Assembly (NCBI GenBank): GCA_045633005.1
Contig: JAZQXT010000047.1
Span: 33,476-97,475 of the forward strand
Direction of reading: 5' to 3'
Source: Eubacteriales bacterium
GTDB lineage: Bacteria; Bacillota; Clostridia; Oscillospirales; CAG-272
DNA: 64,000 bases
Position numbers and translations under genes: made by a program. Of this stretch, positions 4,134 through 48,171 are shown in pieces; within the stretch, counting starts at the first letter, position 1, and every line of letters starts with the position of its first letter. The notes below the pieces were generated by a model that was not told where the DNA came from, made no database searches, and saw nothing but the letters and a program-made list of their open reading frames with translations.

Positions 4134-4145
4134 CTCATTAAAGAA

Positions 4146-4171
4146 CGGCACACTCCCGAGGGAGTGCGCCG
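4146..4171 (-). terminator. Terminator of the phage-like operon
   Basis: CGGCGCACTCCC-TC-GGGAGTGTGCCG followed by TTCTTT on the minus strand, just after the stop at 4185. Confidence 0.65.
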
Positions 4172-4184
4172 CGTAAAGCGTCCT

Positions 4185-5435
4185 TTAATAAGGATATTTA
4201 TTTACTATGCCGTGAAGCTGTGCGGGGATCTCCGTTCCGATGATGCAAATAGCGTCGCACCATCTGTGAAAGAGCTTTTCGTAAAGCGATGCGTCATCGT
4301 CAAGGATGAGCATTGCCGCCGTATAATTCACAGCCGCGCTGACAAAACGGTCGCAAAGAGGAAATTCGCTGTCAAGCGATATTTCCATAACGTCGTAGGG
4401 CGGCTGGTCGGGAAGCCCGTACGCTTTGCGGTAGAGCTGATCAAGCCTTGAAGCCTCGCTAACGAGCGCGGCAAAAATGTAGGGGGCGCGCTCGGTATAG
4501 TCCTCCATTATGGAATCCATATACGCCTTTTTTGCCGCCTCGCTCCTTTCGGGGAAAAGCTCCACGCCCGAGGTCTCGGTTATCTTTACGGTCGATATCT
4601 CCGCCTCGACGCCGCTTTCGGCGCTCGTATCGCTTTCATTCGAGGACGACGTGGTCGTACTGCGCTCACTCTCGCCCGCCGTGCTTGCCGTCTTTTCCAG
4701 CGTGTTGGTTTTGGTGCTTTCGCCAGACGAAACCGTATCCTTGGTGTGGGCAGAGGTCTCTTCACTCTCATCGTGAGTCTCTATGCTCTCACTATTTGTA
4801 TCCGTGAAGTTTTCCGTAACGGTAACCAGCCTGTCATCCGTTTTTTCAACGTCCGCCTCGGAAGTGCCCGTCGTATTAATAGTTGCGCTTACGTCCTCGG
4901 CAATAGTGGTAATAAGCCTTTCGGTAGTAGCGGTAACGTTTTCCGCCGAGGTAGGGATCTCGCTTATGTAAAGCTCGTCGGTATTTTCCGCATCCTTGCC
5001 TCGCGTTTCCGTGGTTTTCTCGCTCGTTTTACCGGTTTTCGATTCCTCAATTGTGGTTTTATCGGTGCTGGAGCTGGTATGCGAGCGTGTATCGTTCTCC
5101 GTGTCGCTCTTTGTTCCGTCTGCCGTTGAGCTGCGAGTTTTCTCGCCGCTGACGTTTTCCGTAGAGCTTGTCGTCGAGCTTACGTTGTTCGTCGAGCTTT
5201 CGTTATTGCTCTCGCTCGTCGTTTCGTTAGCGGTAACCGTCTCGTTTTCGGAGCCGCTTATGCTCTGCGTTTTGGTTTCATTGCGGGTTTCCGTCTTGGT
5301 CTCGGTGACTTTCGTGGTCTTTGCCGCAAGACTCGCCGCCGCCGTCGTCGCCCTGACCATAGAATCGGTATCGGCGGCTATCTTGGCTCTGATGACCAGA
5401 CTTACGGCTCTGTCGAATATTCGGCTGACTAACAT
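4185..5435 (-). CDS. Putative head-completion/adaptor protein with ~250-aa Ser/Thr/Glu-rich insert
   Basis: Directly downstream of the capsid gene, GGGAGG RBS; helical-looking termini around a T/S/E-rich region. Confidence 0.55.
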   Translation of the reverse strand: MLVSRIFDRAVSLVIRAKIAADTDSMVRATTAAASLAAKTTKVTETKTETRNETKTQSISGSENETVTANETTSESNNESSTNNVSSTTSSTENVSGEKTRSSTADGTKSDTENDTRSHTSSSTDKTTIEESKTGKTSEKTTETRGKDAENTDELYISEIPTSAENVTATTERLITTIAEDVSATINTTGTSEADVEKTDDRLVTVTENFTDTNSESIETHDESEETSAHTKDTVSSGESTKTNTLEKTASTAGESERSTTTSSSNESDTSAESGVEAEISTVKITETSGVELFPERSEAAKKAYMDSIMEDYTERAPYIFAALVSEASRLDQLYRKAYGLPDQPPYDVMEISLDSEFPLCDRFVSAAVNYTAAMLILDDDASLYEKLFHRWCDAICIIGTEIPAQLHGIVNKYPY

Positions 5436-5452: not shown

Positions 5453-6271
5453 TCAGTTTATGGTGAGGTCGAGAAGTACCATCTCGGAGGGGTAAATTAC
5501 CTTTGCGCCGTAGAGGTGCAGACCCTTGACGGCATCCGCAAATCGCTTTTCGGGGCGGTACGCATCCACTTCGCTGAGCTGCTCGGCAAAGGCGATGGCA
5601 CGCTTGGTGCGTGCAAGGCACTTGTGTGCGCCGTCCGCTACGGCGACGTTGTTGGAAACGTAGATCTTACAGCCCGCAACGTTGCCGATACAACCCGTTT
5701 CAAGGGTGCTGTCGCTGTTGCTGATAGCGATCTTGGACTTGAGGATGAGCGCCGCAACTGCGGGGGAGACCTCGACAACGATATCGGCGGGATCGCTTAC
5801 GTTATTCTGAAGGAGCTTTGTACGAGCATCGATGATGTGCTCGATGATGTTATCAACGGTAGCCGCCTGCTCGGTAATAACGGAGCCAGCCTCGCCAAAG
5901 AGCGAGAAAACGTACTTATCCGCCTCGTTAGCGAGTGCGGACGCGGCGACCTTCATAGCGCCCGTCATAAGCTTGGGGGAGGACTGAACTCTGTCGATGT
6001 CGTCGATCTGGAAGTTGAACGCCTTCGCCTGATCGATAACGAGAGTCTTGGAAAAATCGGTAAGCTCCTCTGCAAGAAGCTCGAAATCCGTGTTTTTGTT
6101 GTAATCGAAAACCGTAACGTCGGTAAGTCCGCAGATCTTTACTCTGTCGCCCTTGCCCTTGATCTCGCCCTCGAAATCGCGGTTGCAGTTTGCTACCGCT
6201 ACGTACTGATTGTCAAGTGCGGTGAGAAGATTTTCGCTCCATACGGTAGAGATAAAATTAGTAATTGCCAT
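5453..6271 (-). CDS. Phage major capsid protein (P22 coat-like, HK97 fold)
   Basis: MAITNFISTVWSENLL, NRDFEGEI..KGDRVKI, LVIDQAKAFNFQIDDID, FADAVKGLHLYGAKV; follows scaffold. Confidence 0.85.
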   Translation of the reverse strand: MAITNFISTVWSENLLTALDNQYVAVANCNRDFEGEIKGKGDRVKICGLTDVTVFDYNKNTDFELLAEELTDFSKTLVIDQAKAFNFQIDDIDRVQSSPKLMTGAMKVAASALANEADKYVFSLFGEAGSVITEQAATVDNIIEHIIDARTKLLQNNVSDPADIVVEVSPAVAALILKSKIAISNSDSTLETGCIGNVAGCKIYVSNNVAVADGAHKCLARTKRAIAFAEQLSEVDAYRPEKRFADAVKGLHLYGAKVIYPSEMVLLDLTIN

Positions 6272-6309: not shown

Positions 6310-6834
6310 TTATTTCCAGCGGCGCATAGATTCCATAATGCGCCCGTAGTTTTCGCGCACCTCACGGCGCGACATTCCCCTGACCTCGTCAGGAGTGAAA
6401 AGACCGTCGTCGACGGTGCTTATTTTGCCGACCGAGGTTTTCTCAGCCGACCTTCTTGCCGCCTCTGCACGCTTTGCCCTGACCTCGCGCCGACGCATTT
6501 CAAGCGCGTAAGCGGCGGCAGGCGGCACGCCCTGCCTTACTGCCTCGTTGAAGCTGTCGGGCATGGAGCTGAGCTGTGCCGACGGATAAAGGTCCATAAG
6601 CTCTGCGTACCCCTCGGCAAATCTCTCTGCCTCGGCGCGAAGCCTTTCGACCTCACAGCGAAGTGCTTTAAGCTCCTCCATCTCGGCGCTGAAATCACTT
6701 GTCACCGCTTCCTCATCGGGTGCGGCTTCTTGTGCTACCTCTTCCTCGACCTCTTCGATTTCAAACGGAATTTCTTCGATCTCCTCGGTGGACTCTTCGG
6801 TGAGCACAAGCTCCTCTACTATCTCATCAAGCAT
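6310..6834 (-). CDS. Putative capsid scaffolding protein
   Basis: Acidic N-terminus, coiled coil, C-terminal FTPDEVRGMS..EVRENY..IMESMRRW; between portal and capsid; start 6834 with AGGAGG overlapping the portal stop. Confidence 0.7.
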   Translation of the reverse strand: MLDEIVEELVLTEESTEEIEEIPFEIEEVEEEVAQEAAPDEEAVTSDFSAEMEELKALRCEVERLRAEAERFAEGYAELMDLYPSAQLSSMPDSFNEAVRQGVPPAAAYALEMRRREVRAKRAEAARRSAEKTSVGKISTVDDGLFTPDEVRGMSRREVRENYGRIMESMRRWK

Positions 6835-8374
6835 CTTCGCCCTCCTTTTCTCTTGCCGCAAGCAAGCCGTATCTGTCGGGCACAAGCCCGTCGGGGAGAC
6901 GTTCAAGATACTCGCGAAGGGAAATATGCCCCTCTTTCAAAAGATTGTCGAGTATTGTCTGCGTTCCCGACACCGAGAAGCGCGAGGAATCCGAAACGTC
7001 GATCTTCGCGTGGAGCATTGCACCGCGAAGCAGATCCGTTCTTATTTTTTCAGCTCCGTTTTTCGTGTGCAAAAGGCTGCCGTCAAGGCAATAGCCGCAG
7101 GTCATATCCGCCCAGATGTTCGCCATCTGCTCAAGGCAGATATTAAGCTCGGAACGCACGCGCTCAAGTGCCTGCATCGAGCTTTCGCGAAGCGCAAGAA
7201 TTGCACTCGTGTTGTTGGGGTCAACGTTTCCGAGCGCCGCCTCCGTCGCGCCCGCAAGGTCCTTGGTCATAGTGACCGCCTTTTCGATAAGCTCAAGATA
7301 TCCGTCCTCAAGCGCGCCCGTACCCACGACCTGCACCGCATCGGAAATGTTACCGCCGCCAACTGCGGCGATCGCCTCGCCGACCTGATTTGTCCATTCG
7401 GGGATCCTCGTGCGGTCGTAGATGACCTTTGAAAACGCCGTATCCGTCATATGCTTCATCACCATTGCAAACGCGCGGTTGATGTATTTCTGATTTGCTA
7501 TCATTCCGCTTACCGCGGAATTGCCGTGGAAGCAATTTTTTGCACTGCTCCACGAAAATTTTGCAAGCGGATAAAGCTTGCACGGCGTTACGCTGCGGCG
7601 GATAACGCAGTTTTTGGTGGATTTTTCAAACACCACGAAGCCGTTTTCCTTCCAGAACTTGATAAGGTAGGTAACGGGCGCGTCCTCCGGCTCGTAGTCG
7701 TATTCAACGGCGGCGAAATCGCCCGCCATCGAGTCCACGGCATCCTCGCGAGTATCGGGGGTGATCTTCATCACGCTCTCTCGCGACGCGCCGTTGGCAA
7801 GAGCCTCGGCGCGAAGATCTGCAAGACGTGCCTTGCCCGAAATAATAACGTGCGACTGCGACTGAATATCGGGGTTATTTACGTCAGCGGGAAAGACGTT
7901 TACGTTGTCTATCGCACCCGTAAATATTTCACCGCGCCACACGCCGCACCCGTCCGCATCGGCATCCCAGCCGCAGTACACGATACCGTCACCCGTGAGC
8001 GCCGCATCGGTCAAAAGACGGTAGACAAGGGCTTGGAGCTTGTCGCGCTCCCACCTGTACGCCGCGTTTTCGGTAAGCATCCTTACGCCGTCGGCTATTG
8101 CCGCCGCCTCGGATGCAGACTCGGAAAACGGTAGATTTTCATCGGTATACGTTATCCTTATGTCCCCGACGGCGGCGGTGGAAATAAGGTTGTCGGTTAT
8201 GCGGCGAATAACGTTGAATACGGGACGGGGAAGGTCGCCGCTGCCACCCCGCCATTGATCTCCGCGATAAAACCTTTCGTTTTCGCGAACGGTTTCGTAA
8301 AGACCGATCTTTTGCTTATATTTACGGCCCGCCTCATACTGACGCCAAGCCTTTGATAAGCTGTTCTTGTTCAT
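6827..8374 (-). CDS. Phage portal protein (P22-like)
   Basis: NERFYRGDQW, RPVFNVIRR, DAALTGDG, NTSAILAL motifs; follows terminase. Confidence 0.8.
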   Translation of the reverse strand: MNKNSLSKAWRQYEAGRKYKQKIGLYETVRENERFYRGDQWRGGSGDLPRPVFNVIRRITDNLISTAAVGDIRITYTDENLPFSESASEAAAIADGVRMLTENAAYRWERDKLQALVYRLLTDAALTGDGIVYCGWDADADGCGVWRGEIFTGAIDNVNVFPADVNNPDIQSQSHVIISGKARLADLRAEALANGASRESVMKITPDTREDAVDSMAGDFAAVEYDYEPEDAPVTYLIKFWKENGFVVFEKSTKNCVIRRSVTPCKLYPLAKFSWSSAKNCFHGNSAVSGMIANQKYINRAFAMVMKHMTDTAFSKVIYDRTRIPEWTNQVGEAIAAVGGGNISDAVQVVGTGALEDGYLELIEKAVTMTKDLAGATEAALGNVDPNNTSAILALRESSMQALERVRSELNICLEQMANIWADMTCGYCLDGSLLHTKNGAEKIRTDLLRGAMLHAKIDVSDSSRFSVSGTQTILDNLLKEGHISLREYLERLPDGLVPDRYGLLAAREKEGEDA

Positions 8375-8435
8375 TTTTCACCTTCTGTTTTCAGATTTTT
8401 TGCGAAGGACTACTGCACAGACGAAGTTTGTCGGT

Positions 8436-9758
8436 TTAGCCGAAAATGTAGTCCTCCGCAGAGCTTTTTCCAAAGCGGAAGCCGCGCGCATTTTGCAGAT
8501 CGTCGGGCGGCTGAGCGCGACTCATAAGCGCATAGCGCACAGCTTCGGGAGAATGCGTAAAGCGGTGCGGCTCACCCGCCGCGTCCTCGGGGCGATTTTT
8601 GTCGAAAAGAAGCGCAGGTATCGAGCTTATCAGCTCCTTGCAATCGCGGCTTATATGAAGCCTCACCTCGCCCTTCTCGTTCTCGGCAAGGTATTCCCTG
8701 AAAAGCCGCCAGCCCGCCACGCGTCTGTCGTCCGCGGGGCGCATAGGTGGCATACCGTATGTGTTTTGCATCACCTCAAAACCGCTTTTGCCCGTATCCT
8801 GCCGTCTGTTCCAAAGGTCGGGCGAGGCTACGGCGTATTCCACGTTCTCGCCTCGGCAAAGCTCGCTTACCGCCCTTGCCGCCTCGGACAGCGTAAGCCC
8901 CGAGCGGCAATACTCGCGCTTTATCCAAACACAGCCGTCTCGGTCAAATCCGCAGATATACGCCGCAAGCATGTCAAAGCCGTAGTCAAACGCCGCTATC
9001 GTTATCGGCGTCCGTGGGATAACGTTTGGCTCGCACACGTGGCGTTCCTCGTCAAATTCCGAGAAGAACTGACCTTCGAAAACGTCCCATTTGCCGTAGA
9101 GCCACGCATCGCGCAGTCGCGGCGGTAGGCTCTCAAGCCGTGAGACGTATTCGGGGTCGGCGGCGGTCAGACTTGCGTTGTCAAAAACCGTCGCGGGAAT
9201 AAAGGCGTAGTCCTCGGCGCGCTCGCCTGCTCGGTAGTCGCGGTCGATAAAGAGCCGCTTTACCCAGCCGTGCCCGATGCCGCCGGGATTGCAGGTAAGA
9301 TACATCCTTCGCGGCATATCCGTCGCTCCGCGAAGGCAAGCCTTAAAGATGGAAAACTGATATTCGCTAAGCTGAGTCGCCTCGTCGATAGCGATAACGT
9401 CGTATTCCTGACCTTGATAGCGCAGAGTATCGCGCTCCGAGGAGCAATAACCGAGGAAGAGCTTACTGCCGTTTTGAAAGAGGACGCATTTGTCGCGCTC
9501 GGAGTAGCTTACCGCATCGCCAAGCTCGGCAAGAAGCCTGTAGAGGTGATTGGAGCGAAGCTCGGGCAAGCTTCGGCGCACTAAAAGCGCCTTAAGCCCG
9601 CCGTAGCGCAAGCACATAAGCACCACCTTGCGCCTGAGCGCCCACGACTTTCCGCCGCCGCGCGCTCCGCCGTACGCCGTAAATTTTGCACGCGAGGCAA
9701 AAAACTCCCTTTGCCTTTCGGCAGGTACACCGCTTACTCTTATTTCCGCCTCTGCCAT
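8436..9758 (-). CDS. terL: Phage terminase large subunit
   Basis: Walker A YGGARGGGKS, Walker B IAIDEATQ, TCNPGGIGHGWVK, nuclease FDYG. Confidence 0.93.
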   Translation of the reverse strand: MAEAEIRVSGVPAERQREFFASRAKFTAYGGARGGGKSWALRRKVVLMCLRYGGLKALLVRRSLPELRSNHLYRLLAELGDAVSYSERDKCVLFQNGSKLFLGYCSSERDTLRYQGQEYDVIAIDEATQLSEYQFSIFKACLRGATDMPRRMYLTCNPGGIGHGWVKRLFIDRDYRAGERAEDYAFIPATVFDNASLTAADPEYVSRLESLPPRLRDAWLYGKWDVFEGQFFSEFDEERHVCEPNVIPRTPITIAAFDYGFDMLAAYICGFDRDGCVWIKREYCRSGLTLSEAARAVSELCRGENVEYAVASPDLWNRRQDTGKSGFEVMQNTYGMPPMRPADDRRVAGWRLFREYLAENEKGEVRLHISRDCKELISSIPALLFDKNRPEDAAGEPHRFTHSPEAVRYALMSRAQPPDDLQNARGFRFGKSSAEDYIFG

Positions 9759-10136
9759 TTACTCGCCGTCGGCATACGGGTCGTGTTCAAAAACGAGCCG
9801 CACACCCGCCGCCTCCTCCTCCCTTTCGGGCGCTCGCTCGCCTACGTAGCCAAGCCTTTGCTTCAAGTAGACCGACAGCACCGAGGAGGACATTTTTGAG
9901 TTTATCGCCTCATCCTCAAGAGCCGCGCATATCTCGCCGTAAAGCGACGGACGGCTCTCCCGAAGGCTTGCTATATCGCTCATGCTTCCGCCGAAATATC
10001 GGCAAAAGCCCGCAAGATTAGGAATTCTTTCCTTTTCCGCGCAATAGTCGATATACGAGGCAAAAAGGTGTGACAGCTCGTCCTTTTCTATGCTTTCGGC
10101 AAGGAGATTTTTTTCTTTTTGGTTTGCCGTGTTCAT
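9759..10136 (-). CDS. terS: Terminase small subunit (P22 gp3-like DNA-packaging protein)
   Basis: IPNLAGFCRYFG and VYLKQRLGY signatures; stop abuts terL start; start codon uncertain. Confidence 0.7.
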   Translation of the reverse strand: MNTANQKEKNLLAESIEKDELSHLFASYIDYCAEKERIPNLAGFCRYFGGSMSDIASLRESRPSLYGEICAALEDEAINSKMSSSVLSVYLKQRLGYVGERAPEREEEAAGVRLVFEHDPYADGE

Positions 10137-10316
10137 CCTTTTTTCAGTCGTGCCGATCCTCTCTTTCCCGTCTGTGCAATGGAATTTTATCGCGCTTCGG
10201 GGTCTCAAAGGCTGTAGAGTGTCGCCCACAGTCTCAAAAGCTCATAAAAAAACGGCAAAGCTATTGAAAAAACGCGTATAATCGGATATAATTTATAAAA
10301 ACGAAGGAGGTCGGAT

Positions 10317-19416: not shown

Positions 19417-19791
19417 TCAATACCGCTCGTTATACCTGAGCTTGCGCCACAGAGCGCGCGCCTCACGCAGACGGCGGTAGAGCGTCCGCTCGTCGCAGTG
19501 AAGCTCGCCCGCAACGCAAATGACGCGATATGTAAGCTCGTTTGGCATAAGCTTCATTTCGGGCGCGAAGAAATACACCCTGCGCGCCGCCTCCGCCGTA
19601 TCGCACTTGCCCGCGGCTTCAAGAAAGCGCAAGGTCTCCCACACGGCAAAAAGGTCAAGGACTACGCCCTCCGAGCCCGCCCTTTTTACGCGCCGCAAAA
19701 GCGAGAGCGGCTCTTTTTCCTTATCGAGTCCGAGCCGCGCGAATCTCCTGAACGCGCGTATCTCCTCCTCTTTTCTTCTGTCTACCGACAT
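19417..19791 (-). CDS. RinA/ArpU-like transcriptional regulator (C-terminal HTH)
   Basis: 124 aa; VAGELHCDERTLYRRLREA sigma-region-4-like HTH; GGAGGTG RBS. Confidence 0.6.
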   Translation of the reverse strand: MSVDRRKEEEIRAFRRFARLGLDKEKEPLSLLRRVKRAGSEGVVLDLFAVWETLRFLEAAGKCDTAEAARRVYFFAPEMKLMPNELTYRVICVAGELHCDERTLYRRLREARALWRKLRYNERY

Positions 19792-19806
19792 TTTCACCTC
19801 CAAAAC

Positions 19807-44647: not shown

Positions 44648-45169
44648 TTACCCTGCCCTTCGCGCGCGTGTTACGGTAGGAACAAACGGGCTTGAGGCTA
44701 TCGTTTTCGCCATTTGCTCCATCGCGTCACAGCGGACGGCTTCCGCGCGCGAGATTGGGGCGGTCGCGGTCGGCTCGAATATGCGTCTGCAATACGGCTC
44801 GTCAAAGCTTTGCATGGCGATATATTCTCTGTTGCCTATGCGAATGCACGGGATCCTGCCGTCCTTCACCGCGCTTCTTATGAGTTTTTCTCCGATGCCC
44901 ATCGCGGGGCGGCTTCCCTTCAGCTCTGCCGCCGCCCCTCTGATGGTGCGGATATGTGGAATGCCGCCATTCCCTTCAAAGCCGAGAAGGCGGTTGAGTG
45001 TAGGCGCGAGCGCCTCCGCATCGGCGACCAGACGGTTACCATGGTAGGTATGCAGAAGCTGCTTTGCTTCTGCCAAAGCCGTAAGAAATGACGCTCCGAC
45101 GGCTGATGAAGGATCAAGCGTTTTTATTTCTGCGATAATACTCGGGATCGTTTTTATTCTCAACCGCAC
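44648..45169 (-). CDS. Excisionase-like tandem HTH DNA-binding protein
   Basis: Two repeats (IKTIPSII.EIK..DP / IRTIRGAA.ELK..RP), IPCIRIGNR; overlaps the integrase stop. Confidence 0.7.
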   Translation of the reverse strand: MRLRIKTIPSIIAEIKTLDPSSAVGASFLTALAEAKQLLHTYHGNRLVADAEALAPTLNRLLGFEGNGGIPHIRTIRGAAAELKGSRPAMGIGEKLIRSAVKDGRIPCIRIGNREYIAMQSFDEPYCRRIFEPTATAPISRAEAVRCDAMEQMAKTIASSPFVPTVTRARRAG

Positions 45170-46386
45170 TCCTCCCTTTCTTTATTCGTTACGATATCGG
45201 CAATCAGCTCGGCGGCGCGGCGTTTGGACGTATCGTAGGGAGTGAGATATTGTTCCGTGGTGCGGATGCTCTCGTGCCCGAACACCGCCTTGACCGTTTC
45301 AAGATCCGCGCCGTTCTCCACGAGGAGCGAGCCGCAGGTGTGGCGAAGTCCGTGGAGCTTGAGGTGACGCAATCCTCGGCGCTTTTCATAATCGCTGCAC
45401 ATTTCCGTGGGAGCATAGAGGCTTATCATATCTCCGAGCTCATTCGTAAACACAAATCCCTGCTCACGCCATCTTGCCCCCGCCGCACTTCTCTGCTCGT
45501 TCTGCTCCGCTTGCCATTCCAGCATTGCCATCTTGTATATATGCGAAAAATATACGGTGCGAATGCTGTTCTGCGACTTCGGAGCTTTGAGCGCTTGAGG
45601 CTTGCCCTTCTCCTTGTACGCGCTCTTGTTTACGGAGAGGGTGCAATTCTTAAAATCAATATCCTCCCACTTGAGCGCAACCACCTCACCGCGCCTGAGT
45701 CCCATGAGAAGCGCGGTCATAAGGAGTGCGCGTGTTCTCGGCGGCTCGTCCGACAGCCCTTCCATGAACGCCGCCGCTTCATCACGGTCGTATGCCCTGA
45801 CGGGTTCTTTTTTAATTTTCGGATACCGCACGGCTCCCATGCGTAGCTTGTTTTCTTCAACGAAGCCCATACGGTGCGCCTCGGTCATCAGAGAGGAAAA
45901 AACCGTGGCGTAACGCTTAACGGTCGATGCCGCGAGCGGCTTGACGTTACTCTTATCCGCACGCGCTTCGGGCGTGGTGAGGTAATCTATCAACGCCTGC
46001 TGATGCCTTGCCGTTATATCGGTCAAGCGTATTTTGCCGAAGGACGGGACTATAATATCCTCAATAACGGAGCGATAAAACGTCAGCGTGTTGGGGGAGA
46101 GATGTCCCTTTACGCTTTTGAAATAATGCTCTGCGGCAAAGGTGCCTACCGTCATTCCAAAGGGATCGACGGTATTTTCACCGCGCTTGCCGTGAACGTA
46201 TAGCCCGTTATGCACCGATGCCTCGAACAGCTTTGCAAATTCTTTGACTCCGCGCTGTGTTTCGCGTTCGGTAAAATCCTTCGGAGGCTTGTAGGTTGCT
46301 GATATAAGCTCCTGCTTGCCGTCCTTGCATCCATTGGATACTCTGACGCAATACGTGCCGTTCTTACGGCGATAGTATGATGCCAT
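45160..46386 (-). CDS. int: Tyrosine integrase (Tn916/ICEBs1-like)
   Basis: N-terminal arm-binding domain; GLRRGEVVALKW, HGLRHT, FGHESIRTTEQY. Confidence 0.93.
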   Translation of the reverse strand: MASYYRRKNGTYCVRVSNGCKDGKQELISATYKPPKDFTERETQRGVKEFAKLFEASVHNGLYVHGKRGENTVDPFGMTVGTFAAEHYFKSVKGHLSPNTLTFYRSVIEDIIVPSFGKIRLTDITARHQQALIDYLTTPEARADKSNVKPLAASTVKRYATVFSSLMTEAHRMGFVEENKLRMGAVRYPKIKKEPVRAYDRDEAAAFMEGLSDEPPRTRALLMTALLMGLRRGEVVALKWEDIDFKNCTLSVNKSAYKEKGKPQALKAPKSQNSIRTVYFSHIYKMAMLEWQAEQNEQRSAAGARWREQGFVFTNELGDMISLYAPTEMCSDYEKRRGLRHLKLHGLRHTCGSLLVENGADLETVKAVFGHESIRTTEQYLTPYDTSKRRAAELIADIVTNKEREECG

Positions 46387-46457
46387 TTTTTACACCTCCG
46401 TCATTAGATTAGCTCATCACGGTGGCTATTTCCACCGCCTGATGCTTTATGATAGCG

Positions 46458-47867
46458 TTACATTTTAATGCCAAAGCTTTCTTCCTCGTATTCATCCTCC
46501 GTCTGCTCGTCGCCATCGTCCGAGTCTTGGCTGATACCAAGCACGATACCGATAGCCGTACCGACAGCCGCACCAAGCGCGGAGCCCGTGTTGCGTGCTT
46601 CTCTCCGTTTCTTTTCCTCCTCGGATTCATCGCCGCTCTCAATTATACTTGCTATATCCCCAAGCCCACGCGCGCCCATAAAAGCAATACCAATATCATC
46701 GGCGCCGCCGTGAGTATGAGGCGAATGAACCATATCGCTTCGTCCCGAATGATCCTTCTGTTTATAACTCTTGAAGCTCTCTCGCTCGCGTTCCCAACCT
46801 GTTCGCTCGCTTCTTTTGCTATCTTCTTTATTTGCTCCTCTGCCGTCCGTGTCTGCTCCTGCGCCGCCTTTGCCATCGCCTCGGCGTACTTGCTCGCCTC
46901 CGCCTGCAAGCTCGCTCTTTGAGCCGTTAACTCGGCGCTCAGCGCTTCCAGACGCCTCACCATAGCCAGCAGATCGTTCCAGTCCCGCTCGCTCATCTGA
47001 ACCATTGTATTTCCCACATTCGGCTCGTGTTCGATAAGCGAGGAAGGGATATTCCTCGCCTTGAGCTTGTCCATATAGCTCTGCCCTGATCCTGAACTCA
47101 TGCTCCATATTCTCCTTTTGATATTTTTCTTCGTGCAATTTTATATCCCGCACTCGCTTTTCCGTACCGTCCTCAGCCTTCAGAATATAAGTAATATATT
47201 TTCTCTCGGGTGTCCACATCACGTCATAGCCGAGCTTTTTCATCTCGCGCAGGAACTCGCCCTTGCTTTTACAGCGCTTCATGCAATGGTCGATCGCTAC
47301 GCATAGCTGTATCTTCCAGCTGTTGCCGTTCACGGCGGCTCGGTATTCCTTGGGACTCGGGCGGAACGATTTATTTCGCGGATCGTATTTTTCAAGCACG
47401 TCAAGTCCGTGCGCCCGACAGATCTTATCGCTCAGCTCACGAAGGTCGCCAAGGAAAAATTTATTGTTGTGCAACTTCATTCCGCTTTCAAGCTCGTATG
47501 AGCATACGACCAGATGGTTGTGGATATGCTCTCTGTCTATATGAGTGGCTATCAGCACCTCACGGTTTCCAAATCCACAGGCAAGCTCCATACCTATCTC
47601 GTGTGCTTCCTTCGGCGTGATGTCCTCTCCGACCTTGAATGATTGCACGTAATGATAGAAGCGGACACCGTCGGGCTCGTGTCCGAACACCCTTTGCGTT
47701 GCAAGGAATGATTCGTTTGCCATTTCGGGAACACAATTGTAACCCGACACGTACGCAAGCCGCTCGTCCTCGTCAACCGTTTTCGACGGTTGCACACAGT
47801 AATCTATCACGCCCTTCTGCGCGCTCGGCGTTTGCTTCTTCTCGGGGATACATTCAACGATTGCCAT
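46458..47867 (-). CDS. MOBP-type relaxase
   Basis: IDYC, YHYVQSF, ATHIDREHIHNH (HUH) motifs; start reassigned to 47867. Confidence 0.9.
   Translation of the reverse strand: MAIVECIPEKKQTPSAQKGVIDYCVQPSKTVDEDERLAYVSGYNCVPEMANESFLATQRVFGHEPDGVRFYHYVQSFKVGEDITPKEAHEIGMELACGFGNREVLIATHIDREHIHNHLVVCSYELESGMKLHNNKFFLGDLRELSDKICRAHGLDVLEKYDPRNKSFRPSPKEYRAAVNGNSWKIQLCVAIDHCMKRCKSKGEFLREMKKLGYDVMWTPERKYITYILKAEDGTEKRVRDIKLHEEKYQKENMEHEFRIRAELYGQAQGEEYPFLAYRTRAECGKYNGSDERAGLERSAGYGEASGSAERRVNGSKSELAGGGEQVRRGDGKGGAGADTDGRGANKEDSKRSERTGWERERESFKSYKQKDHSGRSDMVHSPHTHGGADDIGIAFMGARGLGDIASIIESGDESEEEKKRREARNTGSALGAAVGTAIGIVLGISQDSDDGDEQTEDEYEEESFGIKM
46652..47101 (-). CDS. Overprinted MobB/MbeB-like coiled-coil + TM protein within the relaxase gene
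   Basis: Alternate frame, GGAG RBS, coiled coil and C-terminal TM helix. Confidence 0.6.
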   Translation of the reverse strand: MSSGSGQSYMDKLKARNIPSSLIEHEPNVGNTMVQMSERDWNDLLAMVRRLEALSAELTAQRASLQAEASKYAEAMAKAAQEQTRTAEEQIKKIAKEASEQVGNASERASRVINRRIIRDEAIWFIRLILTAAPMILVLLLWARVGLGI

Positions 47868-48171
47868 TGTTATTACTCCCAAGAACGAGAAGTATTTTTC
47901 TGTACACCGTCAGAAGCTCCGCAAGGTCTATCACCGTCGTTCTGCCCTGATGAGCAAGGCGTGTAAGCTGATTAAGATTGTTTCCTTGATAGCGAAGCTC
48001 CGAGTTCAGCTCGCGCAGATCGCTGTTGACAACGATCTCACCGTTCAAGCACATATCCATAACGAACTGCCGCATCGACGGTGCTACCGCCTCGTACATT
48101 CGTTCCTGTATAGCATATTTTTCTTCGGGCGTTACCCGAACCGTAATCGTTTCCGTTTGCGTTCTTCCCAA
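47854..48171 (-). CDS. mobC: MobC relaxosome accessory protein
   Basis: RHH N-terminus; LRYQGNNLNQLTR. Confidence 0.88.
   Translation of the reverse strand: MGRTQTETITVRVTPEEKYAIQERMYEAVAPSMRQFVMDMCLNGEIVVNSDLRELNSELRYQGNNLNQLTRLAHQGRTTVIDLAELLTVYRKILLVLGSNNNGNR

Follow-up and report, generated by a model that had tools for sequence, protein, structure and literature searches.

The neck adaptor encoded by the last gene of a six-gene, phage-like head cluster in a gut clostridial genome carries a 287-residue insert in the loop between its first two helices, and this insert accompanies the absence of a nozzle gene that most relatives possess. Within the genus, the nozzle gene occurs in 24 of the 25 genomes with a short adaptor and in none of the four with a long one. 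This contrast, together with a second insert-bearing genus that has no nozzle orthologue, is the new observation here. The reading we favor, as probable though well short of certain, is that the insert folds as a long β-hairpin and that twelve such hairpins close into a DNA tube of about 30 nm. The adaptor is then likely a one-gene substitute for a short phage tail.

The cluster and its last gene

The stretch of DNA analyzed (the window; 64,000 nucleotides) is part of an 84%-complete genome whose relatives have records titled Clostridia or Eubacteriales and come from animal guts; most matching sequencing runs are gut metagenomes of cattle or other animals. The cluster runs along the minus strand from 10229 to 4185 and is bordered by two housekeeping genes, prfB and a gene for a phosphopantetheinyl transferase, one at each end. 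It opens with a probable terminase small subunit (9759–10229), assigned by its position and its conservation in 20 of 21 loci and free of any family match, followed by the terminase large subunit (8436–9758; 440 aa; PF03237, PF04466, PHROG 979). Beyond a gap of 61 bp (8375–8435), where most relatives have a nozzle gene of 570–610 aa, come a P22-like portal (6827–8374; 515 aa; PF16510 at E 1e-11, PHROG 156), a probable scaffold protein (6310–6834; assigned on the same grounds, being likewise conserved in 20 of 21 loci, with PHROG 1660 at E 0.03 only), the major capsid protein (5453–6271; 272 aa; PHROG 267 at E 2e-49, PF25209) and finally the adaptor (4185–5435; 416 aa). A terminator-like hairpin with a 12-bp stem and a T run, called by consensus match only, lies directly 3′ of the adaptor gene on the same strand (4145–4172). 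All six genes are single copy in the assembly and their frames are intact. Metatranscriptome contigs of low depth, from four runs in two studies, overlap portions of the cluster and of the adaptor gene within it, with DNA carry-over a possible source. The insert is not an assembly artifact: contigs from all four DNA runs, from four studies, span it gap-free, although one of these runs may be the source sample.

Short orthologues of the adaptor are about 130 aa long, and alignment with them places the insert between helix 1 and helix 2. Residues 1–39 (5319–5435, minus strand) align with the start of the short form and make up an apparently lengthened helix 1, which spans residues 2–39 in a low-confidence model. 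Residues 291–416 (4185–4565, minus strand) supply helices 2–4 and the C-terminal arm, and are 36–57% identical to short orthologues in the genus. The insert, originally put at about 250 residues, adds 287 relative to the short form (R316 aligns with R29), because both flanking helices also appear lengthened in the same low-confidence model. A model of the short orthologue built from 45 sequences (pLDDT 87.8) consists of four helices and a tail. When this model was used in a wide structure search (VIA), the top 20 matches were all phage neck or tail entries; the best reached Z 11.5 (rmsd 3.2, 110 residues aligned), a moderate value for a helical bundle, and the P22 gp4 and Sf6 gp7 complexes scored Z 8.6 and 8.2. 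Foldseek returned weak matches, at E above 0.001, mostly to podoviral adaptors. The suggestion in the preliminary description that the termini belong to a head–tail adaptor is thereby upheld, the core being homologous to short orthologues whose model matches podoviral adaptors. By homology to this modelled protein, the long-form core is a predicted P22 gp4-type adaptor.

With P22 gp4, Sf6 gp7 and T7 gp11 the protein shares a four-helix body, a C-terminal arm, a P22-like portal, and a nozzle in most relatives. It differs from them in having no nozzle of its own and in the site of its insert, since the fiber- or collar-docking insertions described for this fold lie between helices 2 and 3 (PMC10925440, PMC13730344). 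In Sf6, the C-terminal arm contacts the portal, and residues 16–36 shift upon assembly (PMC9728967). Judged from helix topology, and with the C-terminal arm as the portal-binding end, the helix 1–helix 2 loop would point away from the portal, toward the nozzle side.

Searches with the long form itself recovered little. Pfam, PHROG, and NCBIfam hold no family for the 416-aa adaptor; neither this protein nor the insert profile matched a PDB sequence at E 10, and the short-form profile gave one match, by chance. No match to the adaptor was found among phage records by tblastn with the low-complexity filter on, nor among the viral contigs searched, and a metagenome scan yielded a single locus whose contig ends inside the gene. 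Searches of open-access papers furnished no description of an adaptor insert of this kind.

Nozzle genes and inserts among relatives

The gene that most relatives carry between terL and portal has weak matches to head-closure Hc3 families and to PHROG 8040/578, and on these weak profile matches it is a putative gp10-like nozzle. For scale, the nozzle of phage Pa223 contributes about 8.5 nm (10.1101/2025.06.11.659172). The adaptor is present in 29 of the 38 genomes of the target genus, mostly in the form of about 130 aa and in four as the 416-aa form. These four genomes are 84–94% complete, and in the long-form loci terL adjoins portal with no nozzle gene between them.

A wider sample of the family (401 genomes) contains the adaptor in 106, of which 17 have no nozzle match. 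These 17 comprise two long forms, all seven adaptor-bearing genomes sampled from the second insert-bearing genus (g39), the sole genome of a further genus (G510), and seven short forms, five of the latter from genomes only 63–85% complete. Nozzle absence falls into six clades on a 94-tip tree, two with inserts and four with short adaptors and no insert. The chance that both insert stems should also be nozzle-loss stems is roughly 0.004, under a uniform loss rate, with in-locus absence counted and six duplicate loci removed beforehand. That four of the six clades, and seven of the 17 genomes, have short adaptors indicates that the nozzle can be lost without replacement. The association thus runs in one direction: large inserts imply no nozzle, but nozzle absence does not imply an insert. 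The insert had also been offered as the reason why tail genes are missing altogether, and this broader claim falls: several clusters have neither nozzle nor insert, and short-adaptor relatives likewise lack fiber-like genes by the query used. The narrower claim, that the insert accompanies a missing nozzle gene, is supported in both lineages.

Six loci (L041, L080, L093, L136, L151, L193) combine a short adaptor with no nozzle in the locus, and so present six-gene heads without visible closure. One genome (G034) has a second copy of capsid and adaptor (L039:9308-9697, L040:1562-2787) about 12 kb from its main cluster and at a contig end, either real or an artifact. Two small T-rich inserts occur at the same loop: one of 15–20 aa in a genome that keeps its nozzle (G727; L091:253-687), and one of about 40 residues in G510 (L089:4573-5073), on a cut contig without a nozzle match.

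In g39, an adaptor of 192–196 aa is found in 20 of 23 genomes. Its 66 extra residues sit at the helix 1–helix 2 loop, and are laid out as a longer helix 1, 25 residues, a proline (in 16 of the 20), another 25 residues, and a longer helix 2. Columns 5–100 of the g39 alignment are gap-free across the 20 sequences at 36% insert identity. A full-length nozzle match is absent from all 23 genomes; two of them have weak partial matches (E 8e-6 and 1e-4) inside longer proteins. On the packaging-gene tree each genus holds together, and the long forms fall within theirs, among members that have a nozzle; one clade of long forms plus g39 is rejected (AU p 6e-52, 23 rows). The adaptor core tree, from which 11 of 128 rows with gappy cores were dropped first, agrees with the packaging genes, but tested by itself the core is compatible with a single origin (AU p 0.30). 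Proteins of 344–2000 aa searched with the g39 alignment gave no match, in an insensitive search that missed the known 416-aa forms. The 301–303-aa adaptors of family f22 were considered as a third case and rejected, for their insert separates helix 2 from helix 3, is poor in S/T by comparison, and coexists with a nozzle. Their loci (L066:8576-9487, L067, L068, L069) have the inserted domain, the nozzle, and a different capsid protein.

Architecture of the insert and the structure it may build

The preliminary description divided the insert into two proline-free arms of nearly equal length around a turn-like segment, and residue counts agree. The N-terminal arm (residues 40–157; 4965–5318, minus strand), the predicted outgoing strand, and the C-terminal arm (residues 173–290; 4566–4919, minus strand), the predicted returning strand, are each 118 aa long with zero proline. 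The central tip (residues 156–174; 4914–4970, minus strand) contains the motif quoted at that time, including P161, the sole proline within residues 40–290. The arms are dominated by T, S, and E (26, 18, and 14% in the first, followed by K and N at 8% each; 23, 17, and 15% in the second, followed by A and D at 7% each), and of 1347 long ORFs kept from the genome this one has the most S/T-rich 80-mer (0.50). Their equal length follows in part from where the arm limits were originally set. The g39 proline at the insert center and the mirrored conservation of the long form described below lend independent support to the symmetry, which holds in both insert lineages, at 117 + 117 residues in the long form and 25 + 25 in g39.

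Constraint on the insert is considerable. All seven full-length long forms are 416 aa long and free of indels, with inserts as little as 59% identical to that of the target, and an N-truncated relative (P0009; 49% identity over the alignment) preserves the same 112 residues between the tip and base anchors. Insert dN is 0.12–0.37 against dS of 0.93–2.30 in the four of six pairs that are unsaturated; with dN well below dS, insert and core alike are under purifying selection. The tip is nearly invariant (dN 0–0.14). Conservation is high at base and tip and low in both distal halves, where dN climbs to 0.79, and is mirrored about i + j = 327–329 (r 0.78, without a computed null; a two-anchor gradient would give part of it). 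Charge pairing across the arms peaks at i + j = 321 (p 0.026, 500 column shuffles), a few residues from the conservation mirror. One further long-form fragment (P0008) has a last stretch of about 35 residues unlike all other long forms, and is possibly an assembly chimera or a recombinant.

The arms also alternate. In the N-terminal arm, S, T, and N fill 79% of the even-numbered positions but 26% of the odd-numbered ones, a bias matched by none of 20000 shuffles (residue-class test p < 0.0002). The C-terminal arm has a weaker two-residue periodicity: S/T/N alone gives p 0.36, and the residue-class test gives p 0.009, 0.002, and 0.0002 in the target and two homologues. Both g39 arms are periodic as well (p 0.0001 and 0.02), while the register between them gives no significant signal (p 0.20) and mutual information has no peak. 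The genome has 34 S/T-rich segments, and the insert is the only one that is proline-free and has parity at p 0.001. Since the strands of phi29 gp11, tested likewise, fall short of significance (p 0.22 and 0.15), periodicity is to be read as a sign of extended strands and not of this type of tube.

On the reading we favor, the two arms would pair into one hairpin, and the adaptor ring would be a 12-mer. Twelve hairpins could then close into a barrel-shaped DNA tube below the portal, about 30 nm long in the target and 6.5 nm in g39. Such a tube would take over the job of the nozzle, extending and holding the DNA channel, and the conserved tip may be the site of tube closure or of contact with a partner, none of which was found. 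The original idea that one gene supplies both adaptor and tube is in this way carried halfway: the adaptor termini, the symmetric arms, and the absence of a nozzle all speak for it, and the tube itself is seen in no structure.

The nearest architectural parallel is phi29 gp11, of which twelve copies build a 24-strand barrel of 180 Å from 156 residues, at about 70 residues per strand (PMC6542822). Like gp11, and like the stems of P68 and Andhra, the target would combine in one protein a helical collar and two long polar arms around a tip. Its arms are longer (about 117 residues, compared with about 70), and its helical part is distributed differently, with flanks of 39 and 126 residues of P22 gp4 type where gp11 has about 96 N-terminal and 32 C-terminal residues. 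The surrounding genes differ too: the cluster has a two-subunit terminase and a P22-like portal, no phi29-type connector or packaging ATPase, and no tail knob was found. The tube lengths given above assume the barrel fold and phi29's rise per residue, at which the 35–40 nm first proposed shrinks to a more likely value near 30 nm. A second parallel is the N4-like phage DEV (gp83–gp75), in which a 12-fold gp75 tube of about 330 Å sits directly under an adaptor of the same type, without a hexameric (12:6) hub between them (PMC10925440). DEV encodes this tube in a gene of its own and plugs it with a trimeric fiber, whereas here it would be part of the adaptor's own chain; the two lengths are similar, and the PDB sequence searches, which bear on gp75 as well, were empty.

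Composition invites another reading, in which an acidic stalk or brush, extended and either unfolded or glycosylated, would hang from the adaptor ring as neck shield or spacer, and the insert would form no tube. The insert is 57% T/S/E and has few hydrophobic residues and a net charge of −30 per chain. Its distal halves evolve fast, and alternating S/T is known also from serine-rich repeat adhesins. An AlphaFold2 monomer of the long form (8 sequences) depicts the insert as coil at pLDDT under 35; as the core is poorly modelled too (mean pLDDT 36), this model is uninformative either way. The arms are symmetric and do not vary in length: there are zero indels among seven long and 20 medium forms. 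The other S/T-rich stalks of this genome are proline-rich repeats of PETT type, and unlike them the insert has no tandem repeat and no proline in its arms. Unfolded-looking inserts elsewhere in the adaptor family (L090, L145/L146) are G/S- or P/E-rich and length-variable. The insert's central tip is conserved in both lineages. A proline-rich or length-variable stalk, the alternative named in the preliminary description, therefore fits poorly with a fixed length, a single proline, and no repeats. A serine-rich or mucin-like stalk fares no better, given the fixed length, the lack of repeats, and an N-terminus that is adaptor helix 1 by homology. We consider a stalk unlikely, though the most serious competitor to the tube.

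The hairpins might also form without enclosing DNA, projecting instead as fibers or as a skirt that binds the cell surface or part of a helper-phage tail. All evidence for hairpins counts equally here, the direction of the loop is itself deduced from topology, and no fiber gene was found. In one pair of genomes (G000 and G014; window 4750–5150 against L033), distal dN reaches 0.72 and 0.49 against a core dN of 0.02 and dS of 0.26. This divergence suggests recombination or diversifying selection on the outer half, and distal halves that diverge together over a near-identical core would befit exposed, host-facing parts. A lone two-stranded ribbon of 117 residues with almost no hydrophobics would, however, hardly be stable without neighbors, known fiber-docking insertions occupy a different loop of this fold, as noted above, and the tie to nozzle loss points to the axis. 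Fibers or a skirt are accordingly improbable, and a closed tube remains our preferred structure.

Origin of the insert and its GTA-like setting

If the insert does build a tube, it could have been captured from a phi29-like lower-collar gene, which would make the protein a true chimera. The composition of phi29 gp11 residues 103–258 is similar (T 17, D 13, N 12, S 12, and K 10%), the tip looks like the S-[DE]-x-P with which lower-collar loops begin, and the lower-collar profile PHROG 5472 touches only this ORF, in its N-terminal arm, in two of five genomes (E 6.3 and 8.4), a result that composition can explain. Profile–profile comparison of the insert with lower collars gave probabilities of only 0.1% and 0.5%, from an alignment of 11 sequences that left out two unannotated phage loci. 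PHROG 3225 matched in none of the five genomes, the low complexity of the insert limiting the sensitivity of homology searches; the insert profile had no PDB match and found just four matches among 1.84 billion proteins, all in its own family. Insert and core are alike in GC and GC3. No internal repeats that could have served as its source occur in DNA or protein. The extra residues found at this one loop in different genomes form a graded series (15–20, about 40, 66, and 287), which suggests growth in place. Capture is thus very doubtful. The kinship with phi29 gp11 and P68-type lower collars proposed at the outset gives way to a P22 gp4-type relationship, and with no homology to gp11 detected the likeness is probably convergent.

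A bolder reading, tentative and in our estimate somewhat less than an even bet, is that a phi29-style β-barrel tail evolved anew at least twice, without descent from phi29, in domesticated GTA-like particles of gut Clostridia, through growth of one loop of an ordinary P22-type adaptor (about 15, 40, 66, and 287 residues) during nozzle loss. How short phage tails and the phi29 tube arose is poorly understood, according to PMC11476376. Were the loop-growth reading true, there would be a six-gene particle with a tail whose length is set by that of the hairpin, and a living series of how a tail tube arises from nothing. A known adaptor fold would have become adaptor plus tube by simple S/T-rich loop extension, twice, with intermediates at hand, which points to a minimal, length-tunable protein nanotube. 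The 195-aa form is small enough for 12-mer prediction or cryo-EM, making the question directly testable.

The cluster as a whole may produce GTA-like particles. It combines head and packaging genes with a housekeeping context, has no integrase or replication genes, and is conserved across the clade, as the adaptor counts for genus (29/38) and family (106/401) attest. An integrated satellite or prophage was rejected, there being no integrase beside the cluster and conservation extending across genera. The closest counterpart is FpGTA of Faecalibacterium, a chromosomal element that comprises TerS, TerL, portal, scaffold, capsid, an Sf6-like adaptor (7sp4), and a P22-like nozzle (8eap), has no replication genes, and yields particles of about 40 nm carrying about 9 kb of host DNA (PMC12946183). 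Both occur in gut Clostridia and are alike in gene content, context, spread, and neck type. They differ in that FpGTA I numbers ten genes, a nozzle among them, some strains adding a second operon for fibers and lysis, and in that its capsid is named as N4-gp56 family, for which the target capsid has no NCBIfam match. The tube reading, if it holds, would also point to a GTA-like cluster, mostly of seven genes, that is widespread among Clostridia of animal guts.

Profiles from relatives detected no plug, fiber, ejection, or holin genes in the 84%-complete target genome, and amidases only elsewhere, the best one beside recG. A fiber-like profile matched none of the 38 genomes of the genus, short-adaptor relatives included, in a search run without a positive control. 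These missing genes and the repeated loss of the nozzle might be taken to mean that the cluster is degenerating or has ceased to make particles, with the insert tolerated junk in a partnerless protein, but six intact single-copy frames, dN well below dS in insert and core, and lengths fixed over deep divergence make this the least probable reading of all. In more distant clusters, the nozzle gene is followed by genes for holins, an amidase, a glycine-rich fiber-like protein, and a coiled-coil protein. Six such fuller clusters (L155:10988-14831, L157, L162, L164, L178, L180) are good candidates for working GTAs.

Elsewhere in the window, a 128-aa orphan (19417–19803, minus strand) without a Pfam or NCBIfam match recurs in 21 of the 38 genomes of the genus; by eye it resembles phage late activators, and we take it to be a candidate regulator of the cluster. 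A region of lower GC (19968–44000; 0.36–0.46) contains a DUF285/BspA repeat protein with a similar-looking neighbor, a 911-aa orphan, and a 908-aa Ser/Thr kinase with TPR and NPCBM domains. Further along (45160–47882, minus strand), a tyrosine integrase and a MobA/VirD2-like relaxase probably belong to a mobilizable element unrelated to the cluster.
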